Shown here piece after piece: positions 27,084-59,265 of a stretch of DNA of 64,000 nt (the stretch's first letter is position 1; every line of letters starts with the position of its first letter). The stretch spans positions 1 through 64,000 of IMG/VR virus record IMGVR_UViG_2836880742_000002; one strand, written 5' to 3'. Origin of the DNA: a virus. Its lineage: Duplodnaviria > Caudoviricetes. The notes beneath the pieces were generated by a model that saw only the letters and a program-made list of their open reading frames with translations, was not told the origin of the DNA and searched no databases. Position numbers and translations under genes: made by a program.

Positions 27084-27250
27084 TACAATGCTTTTTTTAG
27101 TGTTACAAAATCCTCACCGTGCCACAAGACAAGACCCGCACGACATACGATCCAGGAACGCGATGGGGTTCCCGTTTTTCCACTTCCGGCCATAACCGCA
27201 CGTTCCGCCCTATGGAACCCCAATGCTTATCCATGGCCATCTTCCTTTAA

Positions 27251-27856
27251 TCAGTACACCGCTTTCTTCAACTCCGCAACCTCCCCGCGCAACGCCTCCA
27301 CCTCGGCCATGAGTTCCGCCACGCCTCTTTCCTCCAAAGCCACCGGCATGCCCGATTTGGCCGAAACCAATGAGATTTTCTTCCATGCCGTCGTGCTGTC
27401 AGGCACCTTCCCCATGAAGGAACGGTGGTATATGTTGCCATCCGAACTGAAACCCAACTGGTGGTAATAATTTCCCGCGTTCGTGTGCAACGTCAACACC
27501 CCGTTGGCATTGCTTCCATGCGGGAAAAGTCCTGCCGTGCTCGCCAATACGTCCGAATCGAAATACACGCCAGGTATTGCACTCGTCCGCGTAATGATTC
27601 CATTCGTAGACCCGCCCGAAGCGTTCATGTTCTTGATCCGAAGCTCCGAGCCGCTCCAATACACCTTCCCGTTGAACACGATGCAATCCGAGTCGGTCGC
27701 AAAGAACAACGCCTGCGGGTTGGACCCCGTCAATGACAAAGCCTGCGCCCGCGTCTTGCTCGCGTACACCTCCAAAATCTTCCCCGTGGGGGAGGATGCA
27801 AGGGGGACAATGCCGCCTTGCTCCCGGTCTTCCGAATCAATCACTTTCTCGTCCAT
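27251..27856 (-). CDS. Tail-fibre-like protein
   Basis: N-terminus paralogous to 27866-29269 (EVYASK...FATD...IVFNG); coiled-coil end. Confidence 0.6.
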   Translation of the reverse strand: MDEKVIDSEDREQGGIVPLASSPTGKILEVYASKTRAQALSLTGSNPQALFFATDSDCIVFNGKVYWSGSELRIKNMNASGGSTNGIITRTSAIPGVYFDSDVLASTAGLFPHGSNANGVLTLHTNAGNYYHQLGFSSDGNIYHRSFMGKVPDSTTAWKKISLVSAKSGMPVALEERGVAELMAEVEALRGEVAELKKAVY

Positions 27857-27865
27857 AAGCCATGA

Positions 27866-29269
27866 CTATTTGATGGTAAGGGCGGCTTTTATCGAGTCGG
27901 CTATCGACTTGGCAGAGTTCGCCGTGTTCGTTGTCGTAGTCAGCTTGTCATTCAGGGCTTTTCCTTGTGCTGCCGATAGTGCCTTCGCCGTGTCCGTGGA
28001 AGTCAGGCTGTTCACCACGTCGCTTTTGTTCAGCTTGGCATCCACCTGCGACTTCAACGCCTTTCCCTGGGCAGCCGAAAGCGCGGCATCCGTGCGGTCG
28101 CTCGTCAGGCTGTTGATGACCTCCGTCTTGTCCGACAACAGCACGAGGTCACCGTCCTTGCATACATAAACGCCCTTAAAAGAACCTGCCGAAGGCATCA
28201 CGTACACCTTGCCCTCTATCGGCTTCCTGGCCAAGCCGTCACTTCCGGCAAGTTCGGCATATTGCTTGGCCTTGTTACTGTCATCGGCAATGGACCAGTT
28301 GTTATAATACGTACCGTCAATACGGTAACACAACTGTTTCATGTCTTTCAGGTAGACCAGGCTTCCCCCTGCCTTCGTGGACGATGCCTGCTGCACCGTC
28401 TGCGTGCCCCCCACAATCTGGTCGAGCAGCACCGGGACGCAAGCCTCCTGCACCGTAATGATGCGCTTTGTCACGTTCGTGCTAGCCACCGTGTTGCCCG
28501 CTGCCACCTCCTTCACGTCTATGTAATCGTCCACCACCTCGCTCCGCTTCACCTGCGCGTCGTTCGTCACGTTCGACAGCCCCACCTGGGCTTTCGTCAC
28601 CCCGTGCGGGTTGCTCTTGTTCCCCGTGTGCGAGGTCAGCTCCGACTTCGTGGCATAAGTTTTTGCCGCGTCGGCCGCCTTCAGGAACACCGACAAGTCC
28701 ACCGTGCCCCCCAGGGCGTCCCAGTTGTCGTCGTTGTGGTCACTGGCCGAAGTGTTCGTCACGCATACCACGTTCGTCCCCGCCGGGTACTTCTTGCCAC
28801 CCAACGTGAACTCGGCCGTCACGTTCCACGTGTCGCCCTTCACCGCGTTCGTCAGCGCGAGCACATCGGCAATGGTCGCTTTCGTCCCCATTACCTTATA
28901 CACGCTGCCCAGTTTCGAGTTGATGGCATTGTTCATCTCTTCCATTGTAGGAAGCGCGTCCACCAACGCCTTCAACGCCTTTCCCTGCGCCGCGCTCAAA
29001 GCCTTGTTCGTGCTCCCGTCCGTAAGGCTGTTGATTATCTCCACAAAATTATAAACCACGCCGTTGAACACGATGCGGTGCGTGTCCGTGGCGAAACACA
29101 TCGCCCCCGGCTTGCTCGATGCCAAAGCCTTCGCATCCGCCTCCGACTTCGAGGCATATACCTCAAAAAGTTGTCCCACCGGGCCACTGGCAATGGGCAT
29201 GATGTCCCCGTTGTCCGCGCCGTCCATATTCCACGAGGAAATAGGTTCTTTTACTTGTTCTTCCATCAT
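27866..29269 (-). CDS. Tail fibre protein
   Basis: Three NSLT...ALSAAQGKAL repeats and NPHGVTKAQVGLSNV repeat. Confidence 0.8.
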   Translation of the reverse strand: MMEEQVKEPISSWNMDGADNGDIMPIASGPVGQLFEVYASKSEADAKALASSKPGAMCFATDTHRIVFNGVVYNFVEIINSLTDGSTNKALSAAQGKALKALVDALPTMEEMNNAINSKLGSVYKVMGTKATIADVLALTNAVKGDTWNVTAEFTLGGKKYPAGTNVVCVTNTSASDHNDDNWDALGGTVDLSVFLKAADAAKTYATKSELTSHTGNKSNPHGVTKAQVGLSNVTNDAQVKRSEVVDDYIDVKEVAAGNTVASTNVTKRIITVQEACVPVLLDQIVGGTQTVQQASSTKAGGSLVYLKDMKQLCYRIDGTYYNNWSIADDSNKAKQYAELAGSDGLARKPIEGKVYVMPSAGSFKGVYVCKDGDLVLLSDKTEVINSLTSDRTDAALSAAQGKALKSQVDAKLNKSDVVNSLTSTDTAKALSAAQGKALNDKLTTTTNTANSAKSIADSIKAALTIK

Positions 29270-29279
29270 TTTCCAATTA

Positions 29280-30119
29280 TTATTTAACAATCAAAGAAGC
29301 ATCCGCATACTTCTTCATCACAGTCGTGTAGTATAAGCTGCCGATATAAGTCAGCTCTATCTTTGCCGACTCCATCTCGTCCAACGAAAAGGTATTTCCG
29401 TTGATGTGGGTCCATGTGGTCGGGTCATCCGGCAAGGTGACCGATTGCGTGCCTTCCTCGCAGAATACGAATATCTCAATCCTGTGCCCGGATTTGGGAG
29501 TGCCGGCTATGCTTAACGACTGTGGGGAGCTGATGCTTATGTCAACCATGTCCACGTCCGCCGGTATGCCCGAAAGGGTGTCTGCATGCTCCACTTTGGG
29601 ACCTTTGGCCATCTCCGTCACCACGTTGAAGTCGATGAGTTGCACCATTGCATTCCCATTGAAGAAGTACAGTCCAAGATTCCCCGTCTGGGCATGGCGC
29701 ATCAGGTAAACCTTGCCCGCTATGGGAGAGTTTCCGTCAAAGCCGCAGAGGAACTCACGCTTTTGGTAAGCGAAAGGCGTCACCGAGGAATCCGACCAGT
29801 TATTATGGAGTTTCCCGTCTTCTCCCGTGGCATAGATTTTTTTGCTTCGTTCATAATAAACCACGGACTTCACTTTGGTGACGGATGACATTTCCGGCAT
29901 CGGAATGGTCGTGTCATTGTAATCACAGATGCCAATGCCTTGGGAAATTGCCGTGTTGAATATCAATCCGGAAAGAGAAGAGCTTGTTGCCATTCCCGGA
30001 GATTGGAGGTCGGACAAGGAATTGGCCAGTTCAAAGCCGCTTCCTCCCTCATCAAGCAACCTTGCCAATTCATCAAGCAACCGGTTGACTTCCGCCACAG
30101 TCCTGTTTAATTGTGCCAT
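29280..30119 (-). CDS. Tail-associated protein
   Basis: Shares NNWS...PIxGKVYxM segment with the fibre; follows the tail tip gene. Confidence 0.55.
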   Translation of the reverse strand: MAQLNRTVAEVNRLLDELARLLDEGGSGFELANSLSDLQSPGMATSSSLSGLIFNTAISQGIGICDYNDTTIPMPEMSSVTKVKSVVYYERSKKIYATGEDGKLHNNWSDSSVTPFAYQKREFLCGFDGNSPIAGKVYLMRHAQTGNLGLYFFNGNAMVQLIDFNVVTEMAKGPKVEHADTLSGIPADVDMVDISISSPQSLSIAGTPKSGHRIEIFVFCEEGTQSVTLPDDPTTWTHINGNTFSLDEMESAKIELTYIGSLYYTTVMKKYADASLIVK

Positions 30120-30139
30120 ATCTATTATTGTTTTGTTTT

Positions 30140-33100
30140 TTACATAAACTTTCCTATTCTACGCTGCCAAAATATTGCTTCGTACCCGTTCATTACGCCT
30201 GCACGGCATTGCAATGAAGCGAACTCCCCTACATTCAAAGTCCGGCTTGTAAAGCCCGTAGGGTCGAAATCTTCAGAGGAAGCACCGGAAAGGGCGAACG
30301 CCGTGTTGCTCATATTGTACATTATGACATATTGTCCCACGAGCGACCTTATAAAATTCTTTCTTTCCTCATCTTGTGTCACGTAATAATCTGACAGGCC
30401 CGGAAGGTACAATGGTGGAATTTCGGTGAACTCGCCACTGAAAACCACATATCCGCCAAGCTTTTCAAAATCAATTTCATATTCTCCTTCAAGTCCGTCA
30501 ACAGGTTTCAGGTACTGTCCGATGTTGGTTTCTGTGATTACGGTACGTGATTTTCCAACATACCCCCTGAATATGCCTTCATTGGCAATTATAATACCCT
30601 CGAACTTCCCGTTCTTGGACTCGGTGCTCCCGTCCTCCAACACCTTGAAGTTACCGTTGGCGGTCACCGCGCCTTCAAGCGATATATTTTCTCCCTTGAT
30701 GTTGACATCCCCTTTTTCAATGTCGATACCGACTTCCTTAAGGCCGTTGTTGATACCGATATGCACAGAATCCGCCGTCTGTTTTATCTCGCTCCGCAAA
30801 TCCTCGTCCAAGTCCTCCACCGAAGACGTGATTTCATCAGCCCTCTGCTCCAACTTGGAAATGCTGCCGCCATGGGATTCCAAGTCGGTGACCACGTTCC
30901 TGATGGCACCGTCCAAAAGCTCGAACCTCGCCGACACGACGCTTCCGTCCTCCATCACGAAATTACCCTTGAAAAGGTTCCCGTGAGGTGATATTCTTGT
31001 CACGAGTTTCCCTTCAAGCGAAAACGAGTTCACACCGGCATACTGGGCGACGTAAGGGGAATCTTCCCCGTAGGCCGAGAGGACAACCACATTCTGCCGG
31101 GAAGCGTCAAAGGCATTCCCTACCGTGACAATATTGTCTTCCGCCAAAGGCACGGTGCTCCCCTCCATGTATTCCCCCGCATCGTCAGACAAATCAATGT
31201 AATCCTCGCCCACACCAACCACTCTCCTCCAGTAGAACTGGTTCGATACCCCTTCGTACACCCCTTCTTTGATATTGAACGTGCGGCACTGCGCATTGTC
31301 GCCAACCCTGAACTCGTTGACAATCCTTTTGCCTCCGTCGTCATTCACAAAGAAGCAGCGGTATGCGGTCACACGCCCCACAGAACCAAATTCCTCCACC
31401 GGCTCGCCTTCGGAATCATACACTTTTTCTCCCGCCGCGTCGATGACGATATTGTCCGTTATTTCCATTACCCTGGAACACACCATCCCCGCAGGAGACA
31501 GCACGTTGGTGCCCCCGGTATGGTAAGCATGCTTTATCTCCAACGAGTCGAAATAAGCCTTCATGCGCACGTACAACTCGTCCACTTCAAAGTACGAGCG
31601 TCCCGCCGCGTTCTTTTTCAGCAATCCGTAGCCGCTCCCGAGAAGCCCAGTGACAAAGTTGTCGCTCGAAAGGTCGCCACGAAGCAGCAGCGAGGCCAGT
31701 TCCGCAGCCCCGTCGGAAGAGATCTGGCCGCCGGATTCGCCGGATGAAAAACTACCGATTATCAGCCCTTGGAGGAAAGTAATGATGCCCGAAGCGGTAT
31801 CATCGTTTAACTTTGAAAGGAACTTCTTGGCCAGTTCTTTGTTGTTCTTTTCTATCCCTTCTTTTATCTCCTTGTCTGTCCTTAGCGAAGAATAGGCGTT
31901 TGTATCCGACGGCTCGGTTTCATCGTCCTTCTTTATCAAATACACATTTGTACCTGATGTTGAAGAGCTTACCTTTCCAGGAAAGTAACTGCTTCCGTTC
32001 AGTTTGATGGAATCTATCTTGTCTTCAAGTGCGCCAAGACGGGAATAGGAGGCACTTTCACCGATGGTATACACCGGAGAATCCCATGGAATGTCAAGTG
32101 CAAGTTCATAGCCAAGCACACGCATGGTACGGGGGCTTGGGAAGAATGAGGGGTTGTTGACCGTTACCTTCTGGCCTACATCGAAAGGACAAGGTGTTTC
32201 CTGTGCCTCATTACGTGCCTTTGACCAGTCTGACATGAGTTTGGCCGACACGGTGCCGATGTTGTTCCTGATTTTCTCGGCATACTTCTCTGCTTCAGAT
32301 TTCAGTTCCTCTTCCGCTTCTGGGACAAGGTTCTCAAAAACATATTCCGTGTCGTATCCGGCCATGACAAATTCATTCCCGGCCTCTGGTTTTATTACCG
32401 TATCCGGCAAACGGCCCCCGTAGTCCTCGTTGGCCACTATTTCAAAGCATGTGGACGTATTGTCACTCTTTTCCGGAAGGAACGTAAGGCCGAATGTAAG
32501 TCCGGCAAGCTTTCCGGTTTGGAAGGTGATCGTAAGTTTCTCTGAAATCACATAGGAATTGTCGAACCCCACAAGCCCGGTGGTCTTGATGGTATACACC
32601 GGTACTTTCATTCCTGTGGGTTTCTTTTCCTCGCCTTCCGTGACATCAATCATTTCTTCCCCAACAGAAGATATGGAAAGCACCTTGCGTGGATAGACGT
32701 AATCGAAAGTCACGATGCCCTCTATCACTTCGTCTGGTGACATGTCGGGGTATACGTCTATATACGGTGTGCCTTCAGGAAGCATCAGCCTGCGTTGTAC
32801 AACCCCGTTTACCGTAAGGCCGTCAACGTCGGAATTGAAATAACCAATGGGGATTTTCATCCTTACGAGATTTCCAATTTCCACTTTCCTCCCCTGTGAC
32901 GAAGGCTCAAATTCAGAAATGTCACCACGAATACAAAGCTTGTTGAAAAGAATCTCGTTCGCGTTACCCTCAGAAACCTTGTATGATGGATTGAAAACAG
33001 CCTCATATTTATGGCTGTTATCTGTAAATTGCAAATATGATGAAGCTCTTTCACCAACAGATACAAACGTCTCAGTACCTTTTATACCAAGGAAACAATA

Positions 33101-34300
33101 ACCTTCTACGTCTCCATTTTCACAATCAAACTGTATATTGATGATTATTCGTGAACAACCATTTGGAACGATTAATTGAGAATCTGGAATATTGAAAGTC
33201 TTTTCCGCAAAACCGTCAACATTTTCCTCGTAGTCTAATATGTGGTCGGACGATTTATCCGTGTATAAAAAACAACGGAATTTTTTAAACCTGTAAGGTA
33301 TTGATGTATGCCTGAATGTAAATTGAAGACCTGAAAGAACGCAATTATATTCAGTACCATAAATCAATCTGTTAGTAGAATCAATATTTGCACTGTTATA
33401 CAAATCAAATTGAAATACATTGCTTAGTGTTGTTCCTACACCAACCTTCATGTTTTGCCCTTGTTCTATAATGACAGGAAGGGAATGTCTGCTCCTTACA
33501 GAATCTCTAAAATATCCAACCACCAAATCTTTATCCAAATCAAGTGGTGCATAATTTTCTCCATTGACATTCAAGGAAACACCTGGTTCCTTCTTTACCG
33601 TGAACTCCAGTTTCTTCCGGTACCGGGATGATATGTTCTGCGTGGAGCCGAATGCGTATATGCGCGTGAAATATTCACCGCTGCTCTTGGACAGGCTCAT
33701 GGTTTCTGCCTCTTCGCCAAGGCTTATTTCCACAGCTTCCCCATTCTCACAACGTCCGAAACGGATTTTCTTGCCCTCAATCCACCATTCGCAGTTTGCG
33801 GCTTCCGCAAGGGAGGTAAGCGCATCTATGAGGTTGGTGTTGGAATAGTGCATGACCAAGGCATCCACGTTCACGTCATTGTCTATCTCATATTCATAGT
33901 CCTCACCGTTAAATTGGAATCCCCATGCTTTCAGGTTGCGCAGGAAGATGTCAAGATGGTATGAAAGTTGCGCCGTCAAATCCCATGCCGCCTCATTGCC
34001 TCCCGTTTCAGGGGTGTACTTGAAAACCTTGTTCTTCCACTTCATGTAAGAGGCTTCCATCTTCAACTCATAGTCATAACCGCCCGTGGAATTGTTGAAA
34101 GATGGCTTCTGGTCTTCTATGATTTCAAAGCGGCCAAACTCGCACTCTGTATGACAGCCGAGTTTGAACCGGACGGGATAAAGCAAGGAAAATTTGAGCG
34201 TGATATAGTCATCTTTCATCAACTCAAATTTTCGCTTGCTTCCTACACCTATCGGTGTGGACAAAACTAATACCTCGTTGTTATCCTTTATTTCTATCAT
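30140..34300 (-). CDS. Large tail tip / host-specificity protein
   Basis: ~1390 aa after distal tail; TRIYAFGSTQNI motif; start likely ATG 34300. Confidence 0.8.
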   Translation of the reverse strand: MIEIKDNNEVLVLSTPIGVGSKRKFELMKDDYITLKFSLLYPVRFKLGCHTECEFGRFEIIEDQKPSFNNSTGGYDYELKMEASYMKWKNKVFKYTPETGGNEAAWDLTAQLSYHLDIFLRNLKAWGFQFNGEDYEYEIDNDVNVDALVMHYSNTNLIDALTSLAEAANCEWWIEGKKIRFGRCENGEAVEISLGEEAETMSLSKSSGEYFTRIYAFGSTQNISSRYRKKLEFTVKKEPGVSLNVNGENYAPLDLDKDLVVGYFRDSVRSRHSLPVIIEQGQNMKVGVGTTLSNVFQFDLYNSANIDSTNRLIYGTEYNCVLSGLQFTFRHTSIPYRFKKFRCFLYTDKSSDHILDYEENVDGFAEKTFNIPDSQLIVPNGCSRIIINIQFDCENGDVEGYCFLGIKGTETFVSVGERASSYLQFTDNSHKYEAVFNPSYKVSEGNANEILFNKLCIRGDISEFEPSSQGRKVEIGNLVRMKIPIGYFNSDVDGLTVNGVVQRRLMLPEGTPYIDVYPDMSPDEVIEGIVTFDYVYPRKVLSISSVGEEMIDVTEGEEKKPTGMKVPVYTIKTTGLVGFDNSYVISEKLTITFQTGKLAGLTFGLTFLPEKSDNTSTCFEIVANEDYGGRLPDTVIKPEAGNEFVMAGYDTEYVFENLVPEAEEELKSEAEKYAEKIRNNIGTVSAKLMSDWSKARNEAQETPCPFDVGQKVTVNNPSFFPSPRTMRVLGYELALDIPWDSPVYTIGESASYSRLGALEDKIDSIKLNGSSYFPGKVSSSTSGTNVYLIKKDDETEPSDTNAYSSLRTDKEIKEGIEKNNKELAKKFLSKLNDDTASGIITFLQGLIIGSFSSGESGGQISSDGAAELASLLLRGDLSSDNFVTGLLGSGYGLLKKNAAGRSYFEVDELYVRMKAYFDSLEIKHAYHTGGTNVLSPAGMVCSRVMEITDNIVIDAAGEKVYDSEGEPVEEFGSVGRVTAYRCFFVNDDGGKRIVNEFRVGDNAQCRTFNIKEGVYEGVSNQFYWRRVVGVGEDYIDLSDDAGEYMEGSTVPLAEDNIVTVGNAFDASRQNVVVLSAYGEDSPYVAQYAGVNSFSLEGKLVTRISPHGNLFKGNFVMEDGSVVSARFELLDGAIRNVVTDLESHGGSISKLEQRADEITSSVEDLDEDLRSEIKQTADSVHIGINNGLKEVGIDIEKGDVNIKGENISLEGAVTANGNFKVLEDGSTESKNGKFEGIIIANEGIFRGYVGKSRTVITETNIGQYLKPVDGLEGEYEIDFEKLGGYVVFSGEFTEIPPLYLPGLSDYYVTQDEERKNFIRSLVGQYVIMYNMSNTAFALSGASSEDFDPTGFTSRTLNVGEFASLQCRAGVMNGYEAIFWQRRIGKFM

Positions 34301-34378
34301 ATTACCAAAAGGGCCGTGCATCTTCACACAGTATATTTATTGCCAAATATACAAATAATATTTGAAATCCAATCACTT

Positions 34379-34807: not shown

Positions 34808-34809
34808 GG

Positions 34810-38898: not shown

Positions 38899-38959
38899 TG
38901 GCCTTTTCGATTTATTATGTATTGTGTATCATCACACAATTCTGTTCTATATTTTAATA

Positions 38960-39673: not shown

Positions 39674-39691
39674 AAAGCTAATATGAATTAG

Positions 39692-39761
39692 AGCGCATCT
39701 AAGGAATCGAACCTTAACCTTAAACAGGATTGTTCATATGCTACCATGACACCAAATGCGC
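39692..39761 (-). ncRNA. tRNA-Gly-like RNA with 6-nt anticodon loop
   Basis: GCGCATT/GATGCGC-T acceptor, GTGT/GCAT D arm, TGAAC-AATCCT-GTTTA, TAAGG-TTCGATT-CCTTA. Confidence 0.75.
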
Positions 39762-39813
39762 AAAACACGTGGGTACAAAAGCCCCCACGTTCGGCTGTTG
39801 TCCTATCGAAAAC

Positions 39814-40302
39814 TTACTTACTTTCTTCAATAGTGACGGTAAGAGTATCATCACTTCCCGTAACTTTAATTACTCCCCATTTTACCTGATTGCCACTTTC
39901 CGGCTTCAAAGCATCATGGGTATAAGTAATCATACCGCCATCTTGTGAAGTGAAACTATCTTCCGCCGATACGGTAGATTTGTCAATCATAATACCGGGA
40001 ACGGTCTCATCTTCCGGTTGTACAGCGACCGCATAGTTATTGGCAATGATTCCGTCATTCTGCTCAAACGGCATAGTCTTGCCCTTCGCCACACGAATTT
40101 GATAAGCCAACGCATAAGTGTTCTTGGTGTAACGAACATCTTCGTTTTCACCGCCTTCCACTTTCGCTTCCTGCTTTTCACCTTTTGTAGCCGTCAACTG
40201 TGTTGAGTTCTCGACAGGAACAGGTACTTCCTTCCATTTTGAAGAAGGAGTATCCAAATCTTTGATAAAAATTCGGGGTTTTCCCCATCCGATTACAGCC
40301 AT
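39814..40302 (-). CDS. Major tail tube protein
   Basis: 162 aa beta-rich; position after tail terminator. Confidence 0.7.
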   Translation of the reverse strand: MAVIGWGKPRIFIKDLDTPSSKWKEVPVPVENSTQLTATKGEKQEAKVEGGENEDVRYTKNTYALAYQIRVAKGKTMPFEQNDGIIANNYAVAVQPEDETVPGIMIDKSTVSAEDSFTSQDGGMITYTHDALKPESGNQVKWGVIKVTGSDDTLTVTIEESK

Positions 40303-40324
40303 AGTTCTATATCACTTAATATAG

Positions 40325-40753
40325 TTAAACATCATTATTAATCTCAATATACAGTTTGTTATTGATGAAATGTTCGGTATGCCCATCCTCGAAGGAAACG
40401 CCTGTCGGATTAGTCTTTTGGCTGCATTCCGAAGGCACTGTGTGAAAATCATCCTTACGTATAGAAAAAAGGAACTTGGATAAGTCGCACAATTCACCGA
40501 CACGTTCGGTAGCTTCTTCCCATGCCTTTGTTTCGGCATTCCATTTGTCACGGACATAGATGTTGACATTCACATAAGCCCGTTGAGTTTGACCGCATCC
40601 TTCATTGGAAAGGACTGATATGACTATATCCTCCTTGTCCGATTTATTCGGTCTACCCTTTTTGCTTAATTTCCCAGTTACGGCACGTTCAAGTTCCGCC
40701 CCTTTGATTTTGTGATACACAAAGTCTTTTATTTCAACATCCGACTTCATCAT
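40325..40753 (-). CDS. Tail terminator-like protein
   Basis: Size and synteny. Confidence 0.55.
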   Translation of the reverse strand: MMKSDVEIKDFVYHKIKGAELERAVTGKLSKKGRPNKSDKEDIVISVLSNEGCGQTQRAYVNVNIYVRDKWNAETKAWEEATERVGELCDLSKFLFSIRKDDFHTVPSECSQKTNPTGVSFEDGHTEHFINNKLYIEINNDV

Positions 40754-43663: not shown

Positions 43664-44383
43664 TTACAAATCAGCCAAAGCGTCTATTTCAGCATCGCTA
43701 AATGGCTCATCTTGTTTTCCTGAACCCTTACCACCGGCAGCAGGAGGGTTTGCCAATGTAGCCAAACCCGCATCCGCACGTTCTTGGTTGTAATTCTTCA
43801 GGTCTTCCTCCACTTCGGAATAGAACTCCTCAAACTCCTCATCGGTTTCAAACTTCATGCGGTCGAAACTCTTAAGGATACGACTGCCGAAAGAACCCGA
43901 ATTTTTGAGCAACTCATTGAGTTTGGATTTTCTTGACGTAGCGACCTTCTCGCCTTTCAATACAGAAATCTCGTTGGTGAGGCTGTCCACTTTGTCGAGC
44001 AACCCTTTTGCCCATGCCGGAGCATCATCATTCTTTTCGTTGTTTTGGGAATTGTTTTTGTTTGAACCCGGTTGACGATTATTTTTTTGTGGTTCGTTAT
44101 TATCATCTTCGTCATCGGTTTCATCGTCATCATTCTTTCTGCGTGCGTCTTCAGCAAGACGATTGGCATAGGACTGGCTGACTTGCAGGAATGGGAGAAC
44201 CGCATCAATTCGTTCTTCGACTTCTGCGTTTACATCCTCATCTAAGGCATCTTCTGCGGAGGTCAGGTTATCGGCAATTTTAGCGGCGATACCCATCAGC
44301 TCCTTTTTATTGAACCCGAACGCCTTCACTTTCGGTTTCAACATCAATAGAACTTTTTGTTTTCTGTCCATTGTACAATACAT
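43664..44383 (-). CDS. Capsid scaffold protein
   Basis: Acidic, low-complexity, PAWAK motif, upstream of capsid genes. Confidence 0.7.
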   Translation of the reverse strand: MYCTMDRKQKVLLMLKPKVKAFGFNKKELMGIAAKIADNLTSAEDALDEDVNAEVEERIDAVLPFLQVSQSYANRLAEDARRKNDDDETDDEDDNNEPQKNNRQPGSNKNNSQNNEKNDDAPAWAKGLLDKVDSLTNEISVLKGEKVATSRKSKLNELLKNSGSFGSRILKSFDRMKFETDEEFEEFYSEVEEDLKNYNQERADAGLATLANPPAAGGKGSGKQDEPFSDAEIDALADL

Positions 44384-44546
44384 TTAGTTAAAAACACGAA
44401 TAGCCTGCGCAGCAACGTATGCCAACAGACTATCCGTGTAGAACTAACCTCAAACAATGGAAGGTTTAAATGTGATTTTGCTTGCATTTGCAATATATCA
44501 CAACGACAAGTTCTGTGGCGTACATCTTCATACGCATTTCTTATGA

Positions 44547-44576
44547 CAAAGATAATAAAAATGATTGAAAAACAAA
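44547..44576 (-). promoter_or_regulatory. Promoter of the head operon
   Basis: TTTG-N18-TATCTTTG on the minus strand. Confidence 0.6.
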
Positions 44577-44727
44577 CATATAATATATATTTTTTTACGA
44601 AAGAGTAGTATTTTGTTCTTAATCACCCATTACAGCGATACCTGATAGACTGAAATCTATCAGGTACACTTCAAGAAACGTTGGCCGAAGCCCAAACGCA
44701 CTATTATTGTCTTGTCATTGTGGCCGT

Positions 44728-45210: not shown

Positions 45211-45495
45211 TTATCTTTTATCTATCACTAAGTAATGTTCCGCCAAGCATTTCACCCATTGTATACGATATTTCTTAGATGGATGATTCCATTCTATATC
45301 TCTTATAGCAGAAAGAATATCGGATGTGCTTTCTTTATAATATCTTGCCAATATCATCAATACATTATAGCTTTCTTGCGGTGTAAAATGTAAAGAACGT
45401 CTGTACCTCTTTGCTGTTTCATATACCCTTTTTGAGAACGATTCAACAGTCTCAAAATCTTCTTTTTTATAATTGAAAAGGTTTGTTGCTTTCAT
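45211..45495 (-). CDS. Hypothetical protein
   Basis: 94-aa ORF behind a repeated promoter block. Confidence 0.6.
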   Translation of the reverse strand: MKATNLFNYKKEDFETVESFSKRVYETAKRYRRSLHFTPQESYNVLMILARYYKESTSDILSAIRDIEWNHPSKKYRIQWVKCLAEHYLVIDKR

Positions 45496-45650
45496 TGCTC
45501 TTGTCTTTTAATTATTAGTATTATATGTTTCTTTTATTTGATATATAAAGATACTCATTTTCAGCGAGTTAACAAAATATCTACACAAGTAATTTACTCA
45601 TAATCAGAAGTTTAACTTTTGCTCACTTTGAGCGTAAACAGATACAAAAA
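45491..45650. repeat. Dispersed promoter/leader repeat, copy 1
   Basis: Gap-free alignment to 52571-52730; 105/123 identical over 45505-45627 by hand count. Confidence 0.85.
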
Positions 45651-45697
45651 AAGAGCGACTTAAAAGCCACTCTAACATCTAAAAATAAACAGAAATT

Positions 45698-48419: not shown

Positions 48420-49124
48420 TTACACAATCTCCCAATCTTCGGCAAACACATCACTAATAGACGGAACCCATGAATCGGCACGTCCTGTATTCTCATTGTA
48501 GATAAGGCACTGGTCTGTGTAGCAAATGAATTTCCTGCCTTTCATAATAAGGTCTTTCGCTGATTGTGAAAGTGATTGCATCTTCGGGATAATATCGCTG
48601 TTGATGCGTGCAGGAACTTGCTTGACTACAAATAAACCTTTGCCGTTCCATCCATTTCTGCGAAGTGCAAATCCTGCGCATAACAAGGATATAGCTATAC
48701 CAAACGGTAAATTGTTACATCCACCATTTCCGTTTTCCATTTTTGTGTAACGGATATTAAGAAGATGTTGGTAATCTTTCATAATCCCTGTTTGCGCCAA
48801 AAGCATGGCTCTTGTATCATCATCAAGTTCTTCAAATTTACTACTAAGGACAAAGTTCTTCAATCCTGAAAGCCGGCTAGACAACTCGTTTCCCTCGATA
48901 AGCATACGGTCAAGCGGCGTATCTGCTAGTTTGTAAGCGTTTTCAAACACATCTTTAGGAGACCAACTTTCATAGCCATCTTCATAACGAACATGATAAC
49001 CAAACTCAGTCTCTTCATGGTTTTCAATGTCATTACCATAGGGGTTTCTACCAGTTTTTTGTACGAAGTCGCCTAATTTCATAGGTTCGGCTTCAACCTG
49101 TTTTGTTCCAATGTACTTTTTCAT
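48420..49124 (-). CDS. Three-domain protein ending in DUF2829/Tad2-like domain
   Basis: C-terminal FGIAI...RNGWNGKGLFV...WVPSISDVFAEDW. Confidence 0.75.
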   Translation of the reverse strand: MKKYIGTKQVEAEPMKLGDFVQKTGRNPYGNDIENHEETEFGYHVRYEDGYESWSPKDVFENAYKLADTPLDRMLIEGNELSSRLSGLKNFVLSSKFEELDDDTRAMLLAQTGIMKDYQHLLNIRYTKMENGNGGCNNLPFGIAISLLCAGFALRRNGWNGKGLFVVKQVPARINSDIIPKMQSLSQSAKDLIMKGRKFICYTDQCLIYNENTGRADSWVPSISDVFAEDWEIV

Positions 49125-51173: not shown

Positions 51174-51324
51174 AGACTAGTATCGTACTCCTTCATACGG
51201 TGATGGTTATAACTTCTGCAAAGTTATAAATTTCGATTGAATAACAATCGTTTTTATAAAAAAGAAAACGCAACTATCAAAGTAATTGCGTTATTATAAT
51301 ATTATAAGTTTTATCCGTCAAATT

Positions 51325-51654
51325 CTACCATAAAGCAATCTTTCCGGCATTTCCTAAATCAAGGGTTGCTGTAGTTATTCCGAGTGCTTTAAAAATTTTC
51401 CTCATAGATGTAAGGGTTATACTCTTGCCTTTTTCAAATTTTGATATTTGTGCCCTTTGCACGCCAATCTTCTCACCCAATTGCTCTTGAGTGAGTTTCT
51501 GAGCAAGACGCGCATTCCGTATAGCTTCTCCTACAAAGTAATTTTCTACTTCTTCTTTGAGCTGGGCTTCTACTGCGTCACGTTCAGGCGTACCTACCTT
51601 TCCAAATAGTTCGTCCTTGTAATCATCGAAAGAATGTAAATTCATCTGTGCCAT
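51325..51654 (-). CDS. Xre-HTH antitoxin (HigA-like)
   Basis: IRNARLAQKLTQEQLGEKIGVQRAQISKFEKG. Confidence 0.85.
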   Translation of the reverse strand: MAQMNLHSFDDYKDELFGKVGTPERDAVEAQLKEEVENYFVGEAIRNARLAQKLTQEQLGEKIGVQRAQISKFEKGKSITLTSMRKIFKALGITTATLDLGNAGKIALW

Positions 51655-51660
51655 ATTATA

Positions 51661-52008
51661 CTACTTATTTTTATCCTTCTTACTGAAATATTCCTTTCTT
51701 ATCGCTTCCGCTCTTTCTATCTCCTTATCCGGTGTCTTCTGGGTCTTTTTGATAATCCCATGCGTTGCGATTATCAAAGCATCAATGTCTGTATCCCAAA
51801 ATGTGAACAGTCGGTATTTTATCCCGTTAAACAACGTACGAAGTTCCCAGATGTTACTTCCTTCCAACTTCTTGTAAACTTCATTATCCATTACACCTTG
51901 TTCTACTTTCATGACATTGTATGCTATCTTTTTTTGAGCCTGAACTGAAAGAGATTTTAGAAAAGCATCTGCTTCATCAGTCATTATAACTTTTGGATGT
52001 TTCCTCAT
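51661..52008 (-). CDS. RelE/HigB-family toxin
   Basis: IWELRT...YRLF...THGIIKKTQKTP..EI; toxin-first order; start likely ATG 52008. Confidence 0.85.
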   Translation of the reverse strand: MRKHPKVIMTDEADAFLKSLSVQAQKKIAYNVMKVEQGVMDNEVYKKLEGSNIWELRTLFNGIKYRLFTFWDTDIDALIIATHGIIKKTQKTPDKEIERAEAIRKEYFSKKDKNK

Positions 52009-52099
52009 CGTTTTTAGTTTATAGTGCAAAGATAGTAATTTGTTTCTAAAAAGCGATACAACCGCGTCTAAAATCTATTTTTACCTTATATAGCACTGT

Positions 52100-52575: not shown

Positions 52576-52730
52576 TACTCTCGACTTTTAATTGTTAGTA
52601 TTATATGTTTCTTTAATTTGATATGTAAAGTTACTCATTTTTAGCGTATTAGCCAAATATCCACATCGCTAAATTATTTATAATCAGAAGTTTAACTTTT
52701 GCTTACTATTGATGTGGACAGGCACAAAAA
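52571..52730. repeat. Dispersed promoter/leader repeat, copy 2
   Basis: Offset 7080 from copy 1 with no indels. Confidence 0.85.
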
Positions 52731-52832
52731 TGCTCCGACTTTCACAAGCCAGAGCACATAGAGCAATGAAAACTGCATACTAAAAGAAACAATAATACAG
52801 CTTTCGATACAAAGTTATAGTAAATCTTTGAA

Positions 52833-54344: not shown

Positions 54345-54706
54345 TTTTCATCATCCGGCAATTCCTGCATTAGTTTTTCAAATGGATTAATCGTAATATC
54401 TTGCTCTATTTTCTCTGTATATCCACGGTCTCTCATCTTGGTCTTACTAAGCCAAATAAGCATAGTGTTATCCTGTTCTGTAATGGCCTTCGTAAACATG
54501 ACTGTTTCGAGTTTGTCTTTGAAAGATTCTTCCACTTCCTCCCATTGCTTGCGAAATTCTTCATCCTTTTCTCTCCACTTATATGCAAGAGTACGAGATA
54601 TTCCGGCAGCTTCACACGCTTTTGTTACATTCAACAGTCTTGCATCAAGCGCATTAAGAAAAATCTCTTTCTTTTTCTTTACAGGAATCCTAAATTTCTG
54701 TGCCAT
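54341..54706 (-). CDS. terS: Terminase small subunit
   Basis: HTH NVTKACEAAGISRTLAYKW; overlaps terL; start ATG 54706. Confidence 0.8.
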   Translation of the reverse strand: MAQKFRIPVKKKKEIFLNALDARLLNVTKACEAAGISRTLAYKWREKDEEFRKQWEEVEESFKDKLETVMFTKAITEQDNTMLIWLSKTKMRDRGYTEKIEQDITINPFEKLMQELPDDEK

Positions 54707-55394
54707 CTTTATTTCCCTCCAATACGTTATTAACAATTTCCAGCATCTTGCAAACACTCAATGCCTGTGCCTTGATTTTATACTTGGCTTGTACTTTAGC
54801 ACTTACTTCGTTTAATCTGCGCATTGTTTCTATGTCTAACAAAGTAAGATTTCCAAGTTCCTTTTCGGAATAGCACTCTAGCGTCTCCATGAGTTTATCA
54901 AACGACACTTTCTGGGTATCGACAAACATTAAAGTAACCGGAACAACTTCATTATTAGGCATTTCAACCGTATAGTTAATGTCCCTCACGCTTTCTAATA
55001 CTTCATTGCTGATATGGGCGTATTCCTTTAATGCCACATCTGTTATTTCATCAAGAAGTTGCTTTAAGACCTCTGCATCGTCCTGTCCGACAATACTGTT
55101 GTGGCTCAACTGTGTTGCCAACAACCAATCATTAGACGTATCAGACTCGTCAATATACATTACATGGATAGATGTCAGTCCTGCCATCTTCGCAGCCTGT
55201 GTCCTATGGTTGCCACTGACAACCGTATATGTTCCATCCTCATGCTTTACGCAGAACGGAACAGAGGATAATTGCCCATCTCTACGAATATTATTCACAA
55301 GTGCGTTAAACGTATCATTACTCATAAAATGAGCATTCTTCTTGATAAGTTTAATGTCAGAAAGCTGAACTTCTGCTATTTTGAATTTCTCCAT
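54690..55394 (-). CDS. ParB-like domain protein
   Basis: NAHFM...VVSGNHRTQAA...HNSIVGQDD. Confidence 0.85.
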   Translation of the reverse strand: MEKFKIAEVQLSDIKLIKKNAHFMSNDTFNALVNNIRRDGQLSSVPFCVKHEDGTYTVVSGNHRTQAAKMAGLTSIHVMYIDESDTSNDWLLATQLSHNSIVGQDDAEVLKQLLDEITDVALKEYAHISNEVLESVRDINYTVEMPNNEVVPVTLMFVDTQKVSFDKLMETLECYSEKELGNLTLLDIETMRRLNEVSAKVQAKYKIKAQALSVCKMLEIVNNVLEGNKDGTEI

Positions 55395-55397
55395 TGT

Positions 55398-57485
55398 TTA
55401 CTCCTTTCTCGGTTCGTTTCCGTATTTCTGTACAAATGCCTTTAAAATCTCATCTAATTTTCCACGAATGCCTGCGTCTTGGATATAGTGAAGTTTTCCC
55501 ACGCATCTTTCATGTAATTTGAAAACTCCCCGATACTTCATACTTACGGGTTTATCAGTAAACACAGACGTGGCAATAATCCCACATTCGTGTTTGTACC
55601 GAATATCCAACTCTGCTTTAAATTCCGTTGAAAGCACCCCTGTAATGAGCAATCTGCTTAACTTCTGTATCGGATGGTCTATCACAAAATCTGATTTCAT
55701 CCAAACAGCATCCATGCCATATTTGCTTACTTTCAGAAAGTCAAACATACAAGCTCCAAATACATAATCATCCAAGAACCACAGGTAACAGAACGGTGCG
55801 GATCCAAGTATAATGCCCTTCTTTAGATATATCATCCGCAAGTAGTCTATTTCCGCCATAGAAGCACGGATGAAACGTAACTTACTTTTCTCGGTAAGTA
55901 TGTAATCATCCGGCAGCCGTTTGTATTTCAACGGGATGATGGTACGCTTATTGAAACTGTTCTCGCCCGTATCTCCAACATTGGAGTAAACATAAGTACG
56001 CTGGTCTTTGAAAACCTCCCTGCGTCCCATAAAGCCGTGTTGTGATAATAGCATATAATTCACCAACCCTTCGTCTATCTCCGAATACTTGGTATGGGTA
56101 CGTTCCTGCCAACCGAAATCATCCAAAAGAAAACGCTGCAAGGCGTTGCTTGTAGCTTTCATGCCGGAATGAAACTCGTTCTGGTAAATCATGATATCGT
56201 TTTCATTGCAGTTGAGTATTGCATCCGATATATCTGCACAATACAAAACTTCAATGTTCTTCGGTTTAAGATTATCGACAAGTTTTTGATACCTCTCCGT
56301 GTATTTCTTCTTGTAGTAATCCAACCGGGCTATAAAATCATCGTATAGTGATTTATGGTAAATGTCTTGTGAGTTCTTATGTTTCTTGATAGCATTGAAC
56401 AAATGAATAGAAGCAACAATCTCTGCTGGATTGTCCGACCGGATGTCCATGAAACTATATTCCTCATTAAAACACAACTCTCTCACTTCTCCTTTGATTG
56501 CTTTGTACATGAGGTAGATAAAATACTCTTTCGTGTACACTTTTATCTCACGGTTGGTAAGCACTTGCTCTATATCCATATAGTAGGAGTTTACTATGTG
56601 GGCGATGTCGAACTTTGAAGCCTCTTTTTTTATGTAAGAAAGCATACGGTTGGTCTTCTTGAACATCTGACCAACGATTGTTACATTATCCGAATGCTCT
56701 GCTGCCCACAAAAGAGGTTTGTGCCTTTGCGGAACTTTAGAATAATCAATATGGAATGCTTCAAGGCATTTTTCAATCGTGGTAAGTTGCTTGTATTCTT
56801 CCATATCCTCATGTAAGTAAGCATATTCCACGAATGAATACATAAATTTGATTGTTTCCAGCACTTTGTCAAAATCCCATGAGCTATTGAAGATGCGGAA
56901 CTCACATGTGCCAATTTTAGAGATTGAACACAGATTGAGCCAATACCTTATATGCCCTCTGTCCGAACCGTTGCTGAACACTTTTAACAGATTGTCAACT
57001 GTGTCAACATTCAAAACTCTTTGTACTACATCCCAAGGAGGACTTGGTACAAGATACTTCGTTTCCCACCATTCGGCAATGTCAAAAATCCGTTTGATTG
57101 GATATGCGGTATAGTAAGAAAGCGCGAACATCCGTTTAATAACATCCAAATCCATATCCTTGATATACAGATGCGCATCAAACCCCTCATTCCACATGAG
57201 ATAACTCCCGGCATCTCTCATCGTTTGGATGAAATCTTTTAGTTCCTGTAAATCTTCAACGCAGTAATGATATGGCCGGGTGTTTATCTCACCACCAAAC
57301 TGACCATGATGCGTGACTGCCGAACCGTCCGAGTTATTCATCATGGTTAGCTTGTTATCCGTCCACTTGTAACCAGATGGAAGTGGTATGCGTTGTTTGT
57401 CACCATCAGCAAATTCCAATTCCATGCCAAATGTACGATTGGCGATATAGTCAATCCAGGGCTTATCTATATTCATGTTCTGCAT
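55398..57485 (-). CDS. Amidoligase (COOH-NH2 ligase) fused to a C-terminal GNAT/Mom-like domain
   Basis: RTFGMELEF, GEINT, AHLY, RYWLNL, GTCEFRIFNSS; C-terminal YLWFLDDYVFGACMF...KLSRLL...FTDKPVSMKYRG (C-terminal call is less certain). Confidence 0.65.
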   Translation of the reverse strand: MQNMNIDKPWIDYIANRTFGMELEFADGDKQRIPLPSGYKWTDNKLTMMNNSDGSAVTHHGQFGGEINTRPYHYCVEDLQELKDFIQTMRDAGSYLMWNEGFDAHLYIKDMDLDVIKRMFALSYYTAYPIKRIFDIAEWWETKYLVPSPPWDVVQRVLNVDTVDNLLKVFSNGSDRGHIRYWLNLCSISKIGTCEFRIFNSSWDFDKVLETIKFMYSFVEYAYLHEDMEEYKQLTTIEKCLEAFHIDYSKVPQRHKPLLWAAEHSDNVTIVGQMFKKTNRMLSYIKKEASKFDIAHIVNSYYMDIEQVLTNREIKVYTKEYFIYLMYKAIKGEVRELCFNEEYSFMDIRSDNPAEIVASIHLFNAIKKHKNSQDIYHKSLYDDFIARLDYYKKKYTERYQKLVDNLKPKNIEVLYCADISDAILNCNENDIMIYQNEFHSGMKATSNALQRFLLDDFGWQERTHTKYSEIDEGLVNYMLLSQHGFMGRREVFKDQRTYVYSNVGDTGENSFNKRTIIPLKYKRLPDDYILTEKSKLRFIRASMAEIDYLRMIYLKKGIILGSAPFCYLWFLDDYVFGACMFDFLKVSKYGMDAVWMKSDFVIDHPIQKLSRLLITGVLSTEFKAELDIRYKHECGIIATSVFTDKPVSMKYRGVFKLHERCVGKLHYIQDAGIRGKLDEILKAFVQKYGNEPRKE

Positions 57486-58341
57486 ATCTCAACTTGACTA
57501 ATGATTTATAACTGGGTGTAAATACAACAAAGTCTCCAATGCAATAATCTGAGCAACGACCATTGATTACGTCCATTACAGTGTATTCGCTTGAGCTATC
57601 TGAATATTGTAAACCGTTGTCAAAGCAGCAACACTCATTCATGTCAGCCATAGAATACCCACAATCAAGAAGTATCTGGCTGCGTTCCGGATAAACGCCT
57701 ACGACCTTAGTCCACAATTCAATACCGTTTACACCTAATTTGTTTTCATTGCCATTGTATGGAATTGTGCCAAATAGCATATATTCTCCAATGCGTACAT
57801 CGCTTATGAATTTAGGCAGGTTTTCATTCTGTCCTAACCAAAAGCTACCACCTAAACTGATTGATTCAATATCGCCATTCAATGTTGCCCATATTTTACA
57901 CAGTCGTTGCATATCCGGTCTGCTTCCATTCAAACAACCAGAGGTTATCATCCCGTAAGCATGGGCGTTATCATCGCAAGAACGAACCATCTTTGCAATC
58001 TGTCTTGCTTCAAACAAACTTACCCCTTCTCTATTATCAAACGCATTGATAGGAATATAGATATTCTTGATGCATCTGTCTACAACGCAATCCATTACAT
58101 CATACGTGGTAGTAACCACTGCGCCTTTTTGATTACGCCTAGCCTTTCCAATAGAGTAACACACACTATCTTCAAAGTGAAGCGAAAAAATATCATTATC
58201 AACTCTATGATGGAGATGCTTCCAAATATCCTCATAAAAATCTTTGAACATGAGCGAAACAGGAACATTTACAAGTGTTTCCGCTTTCTTGATGTTCTTA
58301 ACAATGTTGTCTGTATATATAATTACTTTCATAACTCCCAC
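57463..58341 (-). CDS. Fold-III PLP enzyme, alanine/ornithine racemase-like
   Basis: N-terminal Lys (SLMFK), NREG, SLGGS, VRIGEYMLFG, SSSEY. Confidence 0.75.
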   Translation of the reverse strand: MGVMKVIIYTDNIVKNIKKAETLVNVPVSLMFKDFYEDIWKHLHHRVDNDIFSLHFEDSVCYSIGKARRNQKGAVVTTTYDVMDCVVDRCIKNIYIPINAFDNREGVSLFEARQIAKMVRSCDDNAHAYGMITSGCLNGSRPDMQRLCKIWATLNGDIESISLGGSFWLGQNENLPKFISDVRIGEYMLFGTIPYNGNENKLGVNGIELWTKVVGVYPERSQILLDCGYSMADMNECCCFDNGLQYSDSSSEYTVMDVINGRCSDYCIGDFVVFTPSYKSLVKLRYAEHEYR

Positions 58342-59228
58342 TTCAAAATGACACGTTCAACTCCTTTGTATTTTGTAGCACGTTTAGGCGAGAAACCAGC
58401 ATTGGTGAAACTTTTAATACTTGCGTCATTCTTGGGTGAAGTCATGGCAAATATTTCTTGTACTCCATTGGAGACCAACCTTGCAATATTTGCATTAAGA
58501 AGAATATACTGAAACCCATTACCTCTGTAATCTGAACTGACAAAACATTTATCAACGTATGCTGTACCGTATTCTGTAAAATAAGCAAGTGAATAAGCTA
58601 CAAAAGAGCCGTCCAGCCATAAGCCATAACTGCAACCGGATTGCAAACATTTCGCTATATCCTGAGGTTCTGATGCAAAGCATATTTCAGGATTAGATAG
58701 TAAGGCTTGTTCCATTGTTTCAATCTCGGTCATATCAAACATAGACAGAGACTTGACTTCCATTTTACATTCAATACTTCCTCTATGGGTAGGAAATAGA
58801 GGCTCGTATCGGTCTATCCATGCTTTGGAGAGGAATGCATCAACATCTGTTTGAGACAACAATGCTTTTCTGTAATTGTCAAAAATGCCTAATACAAATT
58901 CTTTATGTTTGGTTAGTTGCTCATTCTTCAAAGGACACTTGCCACTACGGAAAACAAAACCTTTCTTTACCGACTTTACCCACAAAGGATAAGTTCTACA
59001 CATGATAGGTTTGTAACCATTGTCACATGACTTACAGTCTTTAGCGATACATTTTACCTTTTTACCGCCAAAGTAATCATTGTCTATAATTCGTAAATGA
59101 GATATTTCCTGCTCGTGCCCGTTAAATTCATAGGGCAAAATAACGATATGCCCGTCCGAACCGAACGAACAACACTTCCAGCCGCAGTCAGATTTTTCAC
59201 ATGCTCTTATTAGTCCTTTTCCGTCCAT
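58329..59228 (-). CDS. YkgJ-like Cys-cluster domain fused to GNAT acyltransferase
   Basis: CxxxxCxxxCC...KPIMCRTYP; VSSDYRGNG acyl-CoA motif and NDASIKSFTNAGF. Confidence 0.8.
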   Translation of the reverse strand: MDGKGLIRACEKSDCGWKCCSFGSDGHIVILPYEFNGHEQEISHLRIIDNDYFGGKKVKCIAKDCKSCDNGYKPIMCRTYPLWVKSVKKGFVFRSGKCPLKNEQLTKHKEFVLGIFDNYRKALLSQTDVDAFLSKAWIDRYEPLFPTHRGSIECKMEVKSLSMFDMTEIETMEQALLSNPEICFASEPQDIAKCLQSGCSYGLWLDGSFVAYSLAYFTEYGTAYVDKCFVSSDYRGNGFQYILLNANIARLVSNGVQEIFAMTSPKNDASIKSFTNAGFSPKRATKYKGVERVILKWEL

Positions 59229-59265
59229 ATTCTTGGGTTGTATATAACTTCATATACTTTATTTG

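Follow-up and report, generated by a model that had tools for sequence, protein, structure and literature searches.

A strand-specific, covarying hairpin of the RNA type was found ahead of the late (virion) genes of a provirus, IMG/VR record IMGVR_UViG_2836880742_000002. The window analyzed here comprises the first 64 kb (positions 1 to 64,000) of this 88,508-nt virus record, which IMG/VR classes as a provirus and CheckV rates as complete. The first-pass annotation of the window had proposed that a set of such hairpins marks the late modules, and the existence of the family was confirmed: the motif as defined from relatives was commoner than in simulated controls, a covariance-model scan of the phage and its relatives placed it on the gene strand only, the motif preceded the portal gene in every related locus kept, and the stem covaried in leaders that had been chosen by position only. 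The hairpin is a real and apparently undescribed element, and a putative expression signal, of gut Bacteroidales phages.

The hairpin is more frequent than chance and lies on the gene strand

Relatives were retrieved from IMG/VR with the portal protein, which gave 166 stretches, and the best 80 of the 166 loci, with a portal identity of 70-79%, were kept. Twenty-five hairpins from relatives only were aligned (alignment A1), the seeds coming from a scan that demanded five paired bases. A covariance model (R1) was built from A1 with the window phage left out, and the genome was searched with filters off. Two further alignments were used, one of 10 head leaders (A2) and one of the 40 nt before the portal ATG in the window and 17 relatives (A3, 18 leaders), the latter chosen by position only.

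The loose pattern, a loop TGA[AGT]GNNN on a stem of at least 4 bp, had 16 matches on the minus strand of the genome and 6 on the plus strand, so that the loose motif alone is weak. The strict motif, which was defined from the relatives (5 bp, loop TNAWGNNN, then NAC), had 5 minus-strand matches and none on the plus strand, whereas 100 first-order Markov simulations averaged 0.39 and never exceeded 2. One strict match, at 55327 inside a ParB-like open reading frame (ORF), was treated as probably due to chance. In the relatives the strict pattern gave 193 sense and 21 antisense matches. R1 was then run at E<=1 on both strands of 50 of the 80 loci (1.07 Mb), and all 141 matches were on the gene strand.

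The position of the motif was conserved in the relatives as well. Each of the 80 related loci had it no more than 50 nt from the portal ATG, as 10 different hairpin sequences overall, whereas the same loci had it ahead of only 57 of 1530 other starts of sense-strand ORFs with a length of 100 aa or more. Four complete relatives, which are hairpin-bearing genomes of 98-100% completeness, had 5, 10, 9, and 4 copies; the number of copies per genome was thus 4-10.

Structure of the hairpin

The data showed that the true form of the hairpin is a stem of 7 bp that closes on an A-W-G-N tetraloop and is followed, one base further 3', by a fixed N-A-C, about 24 nt in total. In A3, a 6-bp helix was 98% paired with double changes in five of its six pairs, and when seven pairs were counted, compensatory changes were present in six of them. 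In line with the earlier statement that the stems differ but stay paired, pairing was 95-98% across the 6- and 7-pair counts, while control helices slid by 1-3 columns were 23-54% paired.

The seventh pair is made by loop positions 2 and 7, which paired in 13 of 17 rows of A3 (GU, CG, UA, GC) and in 20 of 25 rows of A1 (GU, CG, UA, GC, UG). Because these two positions pair and covary, the G of the "GAAG" belongs to the stem and the loop is a tetraloop; the base at the position first taken as the loop G was G, C, T, or A. The resemblance to lambda boxB that had been suggested was not upheld, since an A-W-G-N tetraloop sits on a 7-bp stem and neither a boxA block nor an N-like protein was found.

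The bases invariant in the 25 hairpins of A1 were the stem U at -2, loop T1, A3, and G5, and the 3' AC. The closing pair alternated between U-G and U-A as had been described (UG in 13 and UA in 12 of the 25), and the two pairs beside the tetraloop were often U.G or G.U wobbles (13/25 and 12/25). Such wobbles exist on the sense strand only, the opposite strand having A-C mismatches, which points to RNA. The stems were modest (-4.0 to -6.4 kcal/mol), and the hairpin folded autonomously and left the AUG region open. A sequence-specific reading of the hairpin is implied, because the loop bases, the stem U, and the AC are invariant on weak stems.

Hairpin copies in the window phage

The phage genes of the window are nearly all on the minus strand, and the late layout was confirmed with PHROGs and Pfam. 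The six hairpin sequences quoted in the first-pass annotation were all found on the minus strand where it had placed them, and its hairpin-to-start-codon distances of 11, 10, 22, and 13 nt were correct. The six top R1 matches in the whole 88.5-kb genome likewise lay on the minus strand, each immediately 5' of a late gene. They comprised five copies of the earlier set and one that had not been seen before, at 40304-40327. The remaining member of that set, a "degenerate" copy at 27105-27120 (minus strand) before a holin-like gene, was not recovered: it had no R1 match at E<=10, and its fold of -1.1 kcal/mol (z +0.45) was no better than that of shuffles. It was ruled out of the family on both grounds.

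Copy 1 (59237-59260, minus strand) has the loop TGAAGTTA followed by AAC and scored 33 bits (E 3.6e-4) with R1; its fold was -4.4 kcal/mol (z -3.7). It stands before the modification/packaging cluster (59228-52833, minus strand; acetyltransferase-like protein, amidoligase, ParB-like protein, and large terminase by PHROGs/Pfam), and the ATG of the first cluster gene, which encodes a 299-aa acetyltransferase-like protein, lies 11 nt past it. The same hairpin precedes the acetyltransferase-like orthologue in relatives. Directly upstream, with copy 1 beginning 8 nt after it, is a tRNA-like gene (59265-59335, minus strand; ARAGORN "tRNA-???", 53 bits for Rfam tRNA), the processing of which, if it occurs, would leave copy 1 near a new 5' end.

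Copy 2 (51180-51203, minus strand), 10 nt before the ATG of the portal gene (51173-49764, minus strand; phrog_64), scored 22 bits (E 0.056) and has a mismatched outermost pair. Copy 3 (44515-44538, minus strand), at the 5' end of the head-operon leader of about 130 nt, scored 32.8 bits and folded at -6.4 kcal/mol. The late region also encodes a head-morphogenesis protein and the major head protein (43233-41866, minus strand), both assigned with PHROGs/Pfam.

Copy 4 (40304-40327, minus strand; loop TTAAGTGA; 29.5 bits, E 0.0018) exactly spans the gap between the stop codon of the ORF at 40325-40753 and the ATG at 40302 of a 162-aa minus-strand gene in the position of the major tail protein (tail tube). 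The loops at this position in relatives were TTAAGCAA, TTAAGTGA, and TTAAGCGA. Copy 5 (38919-38942, minus strand; loop TGATGATA; 24.6 bits) is 22 nt before the ATG of the tape-measure gene (38898-34810, minus strand; PHROGs). No promoter box is ahead of it in the window phage, and the tape-measure orthologue in relatives has a -7 box 5 nt ahead of a CCGTG/CACGG hairpin. Copy 6 (34311-34334, minus strand), 13 nt before the ATG at 34300 of a large tail protein (30140-34300, minus strand; 1386 aa), was the weakest (17.8 bits, E 0.4), with CCC in place of NAC and hence no AC tail.

Placement relative to promoters and start codons

Promoters were sought as TAnnTTTG boxes, following the definition of the Bacteroidota -7 motif given in PMC7366714. 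Three of the six window copies follow such a box on the minus strand: TAACTTTG (51219-51226) ends 18-19 nt before the stem of copy 2, TATCTTTG (44547-44554) ends 11 nt before that of copy 3, and TATATTTG (34344-34351) ends 12 nt before that of copy 6. This agrees with the earlier count of three copies 11-19 nt after a TAnnTTTG box. The activity of these putative promoters is predicted from the boxes, and the TTTG of the box before copy 3 is invariant in A2. In the relatives the -7 boxes ended mostly 4-9 nt before the stem, and a few at 10, 14, or 18 nt. Where a promoter is linked to it, the hairpin would therefore lie at or beside the 5' end of the transcript, judging from the position of the -7 box. 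Hairpins without a promoter came after a tRNA-like gene, a stem-loop, a terminator-like hairpin, or the bare stop codon of the preceding gene.

A dyad, AAAGTG-N13-CACTTT, was present at 22 of 35 distinct hairpin-linked promoters of the relatives, where it ended 1-4 nt before the -7 box (examples at L001:9100-9150 and L058:14610-14655). It is absent from the three promoters of the window. Two roles are conceivable for the dyad, as an operator that covers the -33 region or as a terminator closing the preceding unit; its partial covariation makes the terminator the more likely.

The distance from NAC to ATG was 0-24 nt for the packaging, Bro-like, portal, tail-tube, tape-measure, and large-tail genes of the window and the relatives; the exceptions were head-type leaders (about 108-140 nt) and a few rows resembling chance matches. 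The motif was kept in all 80 portal leaders, irrespective of what came before it (a -7 box, a terminator, or only the preceding gene's stop codon). Where a Bro-like gene is inserted between the promoter and the portal gene in relatives, each of the two genes has its own hairpin. Moron genes of the late region that are served by separate, different promoters (RadC-like, HigB-like/HTH, and those behind a thrice-repeated promoter leader) have no hairpin.

The hairpin thus tracks start codons over promoters and is kept gene by gene at cassette insertions, its specific bases are invariant on weak stems, and it lies within the -5 to -30 region, all of which argues for a post-transcriptional operator. 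Our preferred reading, with a probability of about 40%, is that it would be an mRNA operator at the starts of late cistrons, acting on translation initiation and/or on the protection or definition of 5' ends. The hairpin would thus act in cis within late mRNAs, as a stem-loop particular to the clade that tags the main virion cistrons, namely the first packaging/modification gene, the portal gene, the head operon, the tail-tube-position gene, the tape-measure gene, and the gene of the large tail protein. It would serve as a docking site after transcription has started, and docking there would control the initiation of translation on each late cistron and/or shield or define its 5' end. The reader might be host machinery (the ribosome, S1, or an RNase) or a late-module protein, which would amount to autogenous control. 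Bacteroidota translate without Shine-Dalgarno pairing. According to PMC7366714, initiation in this phylum favours open, A-rich RNA at -5 to -30. The binding of any reader, and its outcome, we infer from the structure, strand, conservation, placement, and phage specificity that were observed.

The head leader and antitermination

The head-leader hairpin was kept in 10 of 10 aligned leaders (A2), its stem varying from GCGTA/TACGC to GCATG/CATGC. Directly after copy 3 is a conserved box, GAACTTGTCGT (44503-44513, minus strand), which was nearly invariant in the 10 leaders and was found in head leaders only; in the fold of the window leader, its first bases pair with AGUUCU just ahead of a terminator-like stem. 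This stem, of about 20 bp and followed by a U-run (44388-44439, minus strand), resembles an intrinsic terminator and stops a few nt short of the first head gene, whose ATG is at 44383. It was present in 10 of 10 leaders, with two compensatory pairs and a run of 4-7 T, and is probably a terminator. A scan for sigma-70 promoters and simple terminators returned nothing beyond the level of shuffles, and the head-leader terminator was not among its calls.

This leader is the place where a nut-like function would fit best, that is, a site where RNA polymerase is joined at the hairpin by a factor, or by the RNA itself, and is thereby carried through the terminators inside and between late units, as it is by N at boxB in lambdoid phages. 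The hairpin would be the first transcribed element, with -7 boxes mostly 4-9 nt ahead in relatives and 11-19 nt ahead in the window. In all 10 leaders the terminator-like stem with its U-run separates the hairpin from the first head gene, the late units are flanked by terminator-like hairpins, and other hairpins of the same GCGTR...CAC form stand at the start of leaders that have no ORF within 170 nt (G007_4931, G008_10129). Lambdoid nut sites are similar in several respects: boxB is a short RNA stem-loop with a specific loop and variable stems, it is promoter-proximal or intercistronic, and there are several copies per phage; here, one copy is upstream of a leader terminator. The nut arrangement of a site between promoter and terminator was seen in the 10 head leaders, and three of the six window copies follow a -7 box.

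However, the complete hairpin-bearing genomes have no common early gene that could supply an antiterminator, and no arginine-rich N-like ORF was found in a plausible gene. BoxA lies 5' of the hairpin in nut sites, but the 15 columns upstream of the hairpin in A3 showed only A-richness and no boxA-like conserved block, the conserved flank here being the 3' N-A-C. Promoter-less copies abut mid-operon start codons (the tail-tube gene in all relatives, and the portal gene behind a Bro-like gene), and most copies leave no space for a terminator ahead of the gene. Unlike nut sites, the hairpins number 4-10 per genome, and most are 0-24 nt from a start codon. According to PMC12550061, boxB loops vary among lambdoid phages and are GNRA-like pentaloops or a hexaloop; such variation would suit a nut-like site, but the A-W-G-N tetraloop differs from these loops. 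We regard a nut-like function as rather unlikely and as the main rival of the operator reading, supported chiefly by the head-leader terminator and by the position close to promoters.

Phages that carry the hairpin

The phage specificity of the motif was examined in a 4.3-Mb Parabacteroides faecalis genome that contains a related contig. All four R1 matches (E<=10) fell within that contig, 150 of 1625 candidates having been scored. Among more distant phages, no significant match was obtained in MT836221 (portal identity 54%), Porphyromonas phage005b (33%), or Riemerella RAP44 (31%); the portal gene of MT836221 has a -7 box ahead and no hairpin.

In the four complete hairpin-bearing relatives, a -7 box and a hairpin preceded the large tail gene in 4 of 4, although the gene was only 26-49% identical. 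In contrast, ten loci from other phages (L088-L097), in which the tail N-terminus was 80-99% identical over the first 240-300 residues, had the hairpin in 0 of 10, and it was also absent from 5 of 5 whole records of this tail-gene group. The hairpin therefore belongs to the control system of the phage lineage and not to the genes. The DNA homology of the window with the L088-L097 proviruses begins right after the hairpin, so that the mosaic junction falls cleanly at the regulatory cassette.

An explanation at the DNA level would take the hairpin as a duplex operator or promoter element, a single-strand priming or recombination hairpin, or a module-boundary linker for mosaic exchange. It does lie at module boundaries, with homology to foreign tail genes beginning directly after it, and the cassette-like Bro insertions are flanked by hairpins. 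But the stems covary rather than keep half-site sequence, the G.U wobbles fit the sense strand only, the conserved part is asymmetric, and every copy precedes a late gene and is on the gene strand. The common loops span about 8 nt, less than homologous exchange requires, and no large RNA-polymerase-like ORF was noticed in the ORF list or occurred among the Pfam/PHROGs matches, RNA-polymerase families not having been searched for. A DNA-level role is very improbable. Two particular forms were considered and rejected: an integron attC site, since the hairpin is far smaller and no integron integrase was seen, and an N4-type hairpin promoter, since the G.U pairs fit the sense strand only and no large RNA-polymerase-like ORF had been noticed (again with the families not searched for).

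The view that the signal was undescribed was sustained. In Rfam, tRNA was the sole match at the gathering threshold in the window, and the head leader (44350-44620) had no match at E<=5. No description was found in the literature on Bacteroides prophage antitermination and late genes or on Parabacteroides phage late promoters, paper supplements being outside the scope of the search.

Candidate readers of the hairpin

As the first-pass annotation had anticipated, no binding factor could be named, either from Pfam and PHROGs scans of about 108 ORFs or from the comparison with relatives. All ORFs of the window genome were compared with the four complete relatives by tblastn. The early/replication region (64-86 kb) was not shared at all, and the genes common to all four were the virion genes and three ORFs, encoding a DUF3560 protein, a DNA methylase, and an HSDR_N-domain protein (genome 86550-87689). 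Because the early regions of hairpin-bearing phages are unrelated, a conserved early N-like reader is unlikely, and because the common genes are the late module and few others, any reader is most likely host machinery or a late-module protein. The search for a partner is narrowed accordingly to the late module or the host.

No antiterminator was matched among the about 108 ORFs in the Pfam/PHROGs scans, which a very small or fast-evolving protein could escape. A scan for N-like ORFs with arginine-rich stretches gave mostly ORFs overlapping larger genes, together with the DUF3560 protein, and none was plausible. A Com-type zinc ribbon was sought by a six-frame search of the whole genome with PF10122, in which the best score was 12.6 bits against a cut-off of 22.9; the sole small CxxC...CxxC protein in a real gene was a DUF3268 protein (genome 78577-79005).

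Two toxin-antitoxin-like pairs were also considered, both of which are accessory among the relatives. The first (51325-52029), just upstream of the portal promoter, consists of a HigB-like Gp49 and an HTH protein and was rejected as the reader since it is not in all relatives. The second (genome 65220-65842) consists of a HicA toxin (65660-65842, 33.1 bits) followed by a 134-aa ORF in the antitoxin position, which had no Pfam or PHROGs match. The HicA toxin was rejected as well, being present in 2 of 5 relatives and in 2 of the 4 that are at least 90% complete.

The DUF3560 protein (63288-63938), encoded 3-4 kb upstream of the late cluster, was 83-84% identical in the four complete relatives. 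It was more conserved than the portal or the major head protein across these otherwise mosaic phages, and it had 5233 homologues at E<=0.001, with an invariant GHHSE..H.RK block. Among 80 loci around DUF3560 homologues, 57 had hairpins, which lay downstream of the gene, and all 85 matches were on the strand of the DUF3560 gene. The AlphaFold model of the protein (pLDDT 77.4) had no PDB match at E<=0.001. We consider it a weak candidate for the partner.

Comparison with other systems

The start-associated sequence SAS and its extended form ESAS of Cluster K mycobacteriophages (PMC3203893) are similar to the hairpin in being a clade-specific motif of one orientation just upstream of some phage start codons, conserved by gene family across relatives and suspected of a part in translation initiation. 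As described in PMC3203893, SAS is a fixed 13-bp sequence with a Shine-Dalgarno core, which the hairpin lacks, and the inverted repeats of ESAS were judged by its authors not to support RNA pairing. Here, in contrast, the element is a covarying RNA hairpin, found before virion genes only and in a phylum without Shine-Dalgarno use.

The Com/mom system of Mu also has a hairpin just 5' of a late-gene start, bound there by a small phage protein that switches translation on. It differs in that no Com-like zinc ribbon was found here, the start codon is not sequestered, and there are many targets instead of one. The coat-protein hairpins of MS2 type and the autoregulated P22 scaffolding gene each rely on a single operator per genome, and the protein that binds it is known. 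They are similar in having a small hairpin with few specific bases beside a start codon and a virion protein as reader, an arrangement that would fit a late-module factor, but here there are 4-10 operators and no protein was identified.

The 5'-terminal stabilizer hairpins of the ompA type need no conserved loop sequence. The hairpin resembles them in lying within a few nt of a predicted 5' end with an open initiation region after it, and a factor-independent role of this kind was weighed, in which a 5'-proximal hairpin slows 5'-end-dependent decay or insulates the initiation region and the conserved bases reflect folding or descent only. The 5'-proximal position after promoters and tRNA-like genes and the autonomous fold beside an unstructured start region are consistent with it. 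However, the loop bases and the AC are invariant across unrelated stems and different genes, in contrast to the unconstrained loops of the ompA type, the stems are weak (-4 to -6.4 kcal/mol), and several copies are operon-internal. This explanation seems to us quite unlikely.

Evidence against the operator reading, and its significance

Several observations weigh against an mRNA operator, or limit the evidence for it. A1 carries a circularity from its pairing-based seeding, of which A3 alone is free, and the relatives are closely akin (portal 70-79% identical), so that many counts are non-independent. The head-leader copy, 108-140 nt from its ATG and followed by the conserved terminator-like stem, suits antitermination over translational control. 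Apart from the HicA toxin, no RNA-binding domain turned up when about 108 ORFs were scanned with Pfam or PHROGs, and a search for RNA sequencing runs that contain the phage found none. The DUF3560 protein, whose gene is the best conserved of the non-structural genes, was present, at 83-87% identity, in hairpin-less whole records, namely in all five checked of the 23 loci without a match, two of them complete; a scan showed no other recurring hairpins in these records. The Parabacteroides faecalis scan, as noted, scored only a part of its candidates.

To our knowledge, the timing and balance of late genes in temperate Bacteroidales phages are essentially unknown, and the rules of initiation in Bacteroidota are poorly understood. 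An element of about 24 nt that covaries, has invariant putative contact bases, and is kept at 80 of 80 portal loci opens post-transcriptional or antitermination control in gut phages to direct tests. The hairpin-bearing group consists of common gut Bacteroidales phages, and one cultured Parabacteroides genome carries the hairpin, which could also serve as a portable expression-control part in Bacteroides engineering.

An extension of the operator reading, which we offer tentatively and hold to be somewhat doubtful, is that the virion module carries a portable expression code, a late-cistron tag that would be read by the Shine-Dalgarno-independent ribosome of Bacteroidota or by a protein of the same module. 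If so, the module would stay correctly expressed or silent whatever early region it recombined with, and the tag would represent a new class of translation-initiation or mRNA-fate signal.

Other features of the window

A plus-strand antisense RNA at 2265-2410, behind a TATCTTTG box, has a very stable predicted fold (-53.3 kcal/mol, z -5.89); it had no match to R1 in the whole-genome search. The 140-nt gap after the tail-tube-position gene (39674-39813) contains a terminator-like stem and then a tRNA-like stretch that was not called by ARAGORN. A late-region protein (48420-49124) has a Tad2-like (anti-Thoeris) domain and a crAss001_48 domain.

The thrice-repeated promoter leader mentioned above is a promoter-plus-leader segment of about 130 nt at 45496-45697, 52576-52832, and 64258-64388, the last lying partly beyond the window. 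It stands upstream of small minus-strand genes (ends at 45495, 52575, and 64257), carries no late hairpin, and looks like a second, non-late class of promoter for moron or early genes.

The region from 4000 to 13500 is a plus-strand island of higher G+C (0.48-0.51) that encodes a tyrosine integrase, two HTH_17 proteins, an AAA_25/HTH protein, and a DUF6371 plus zinc-ribbon protein. None of its genes is common to the four complete relatives, and the island has the look of an integrative element, perhaps a satellite, that sits within the prophage or next to it.

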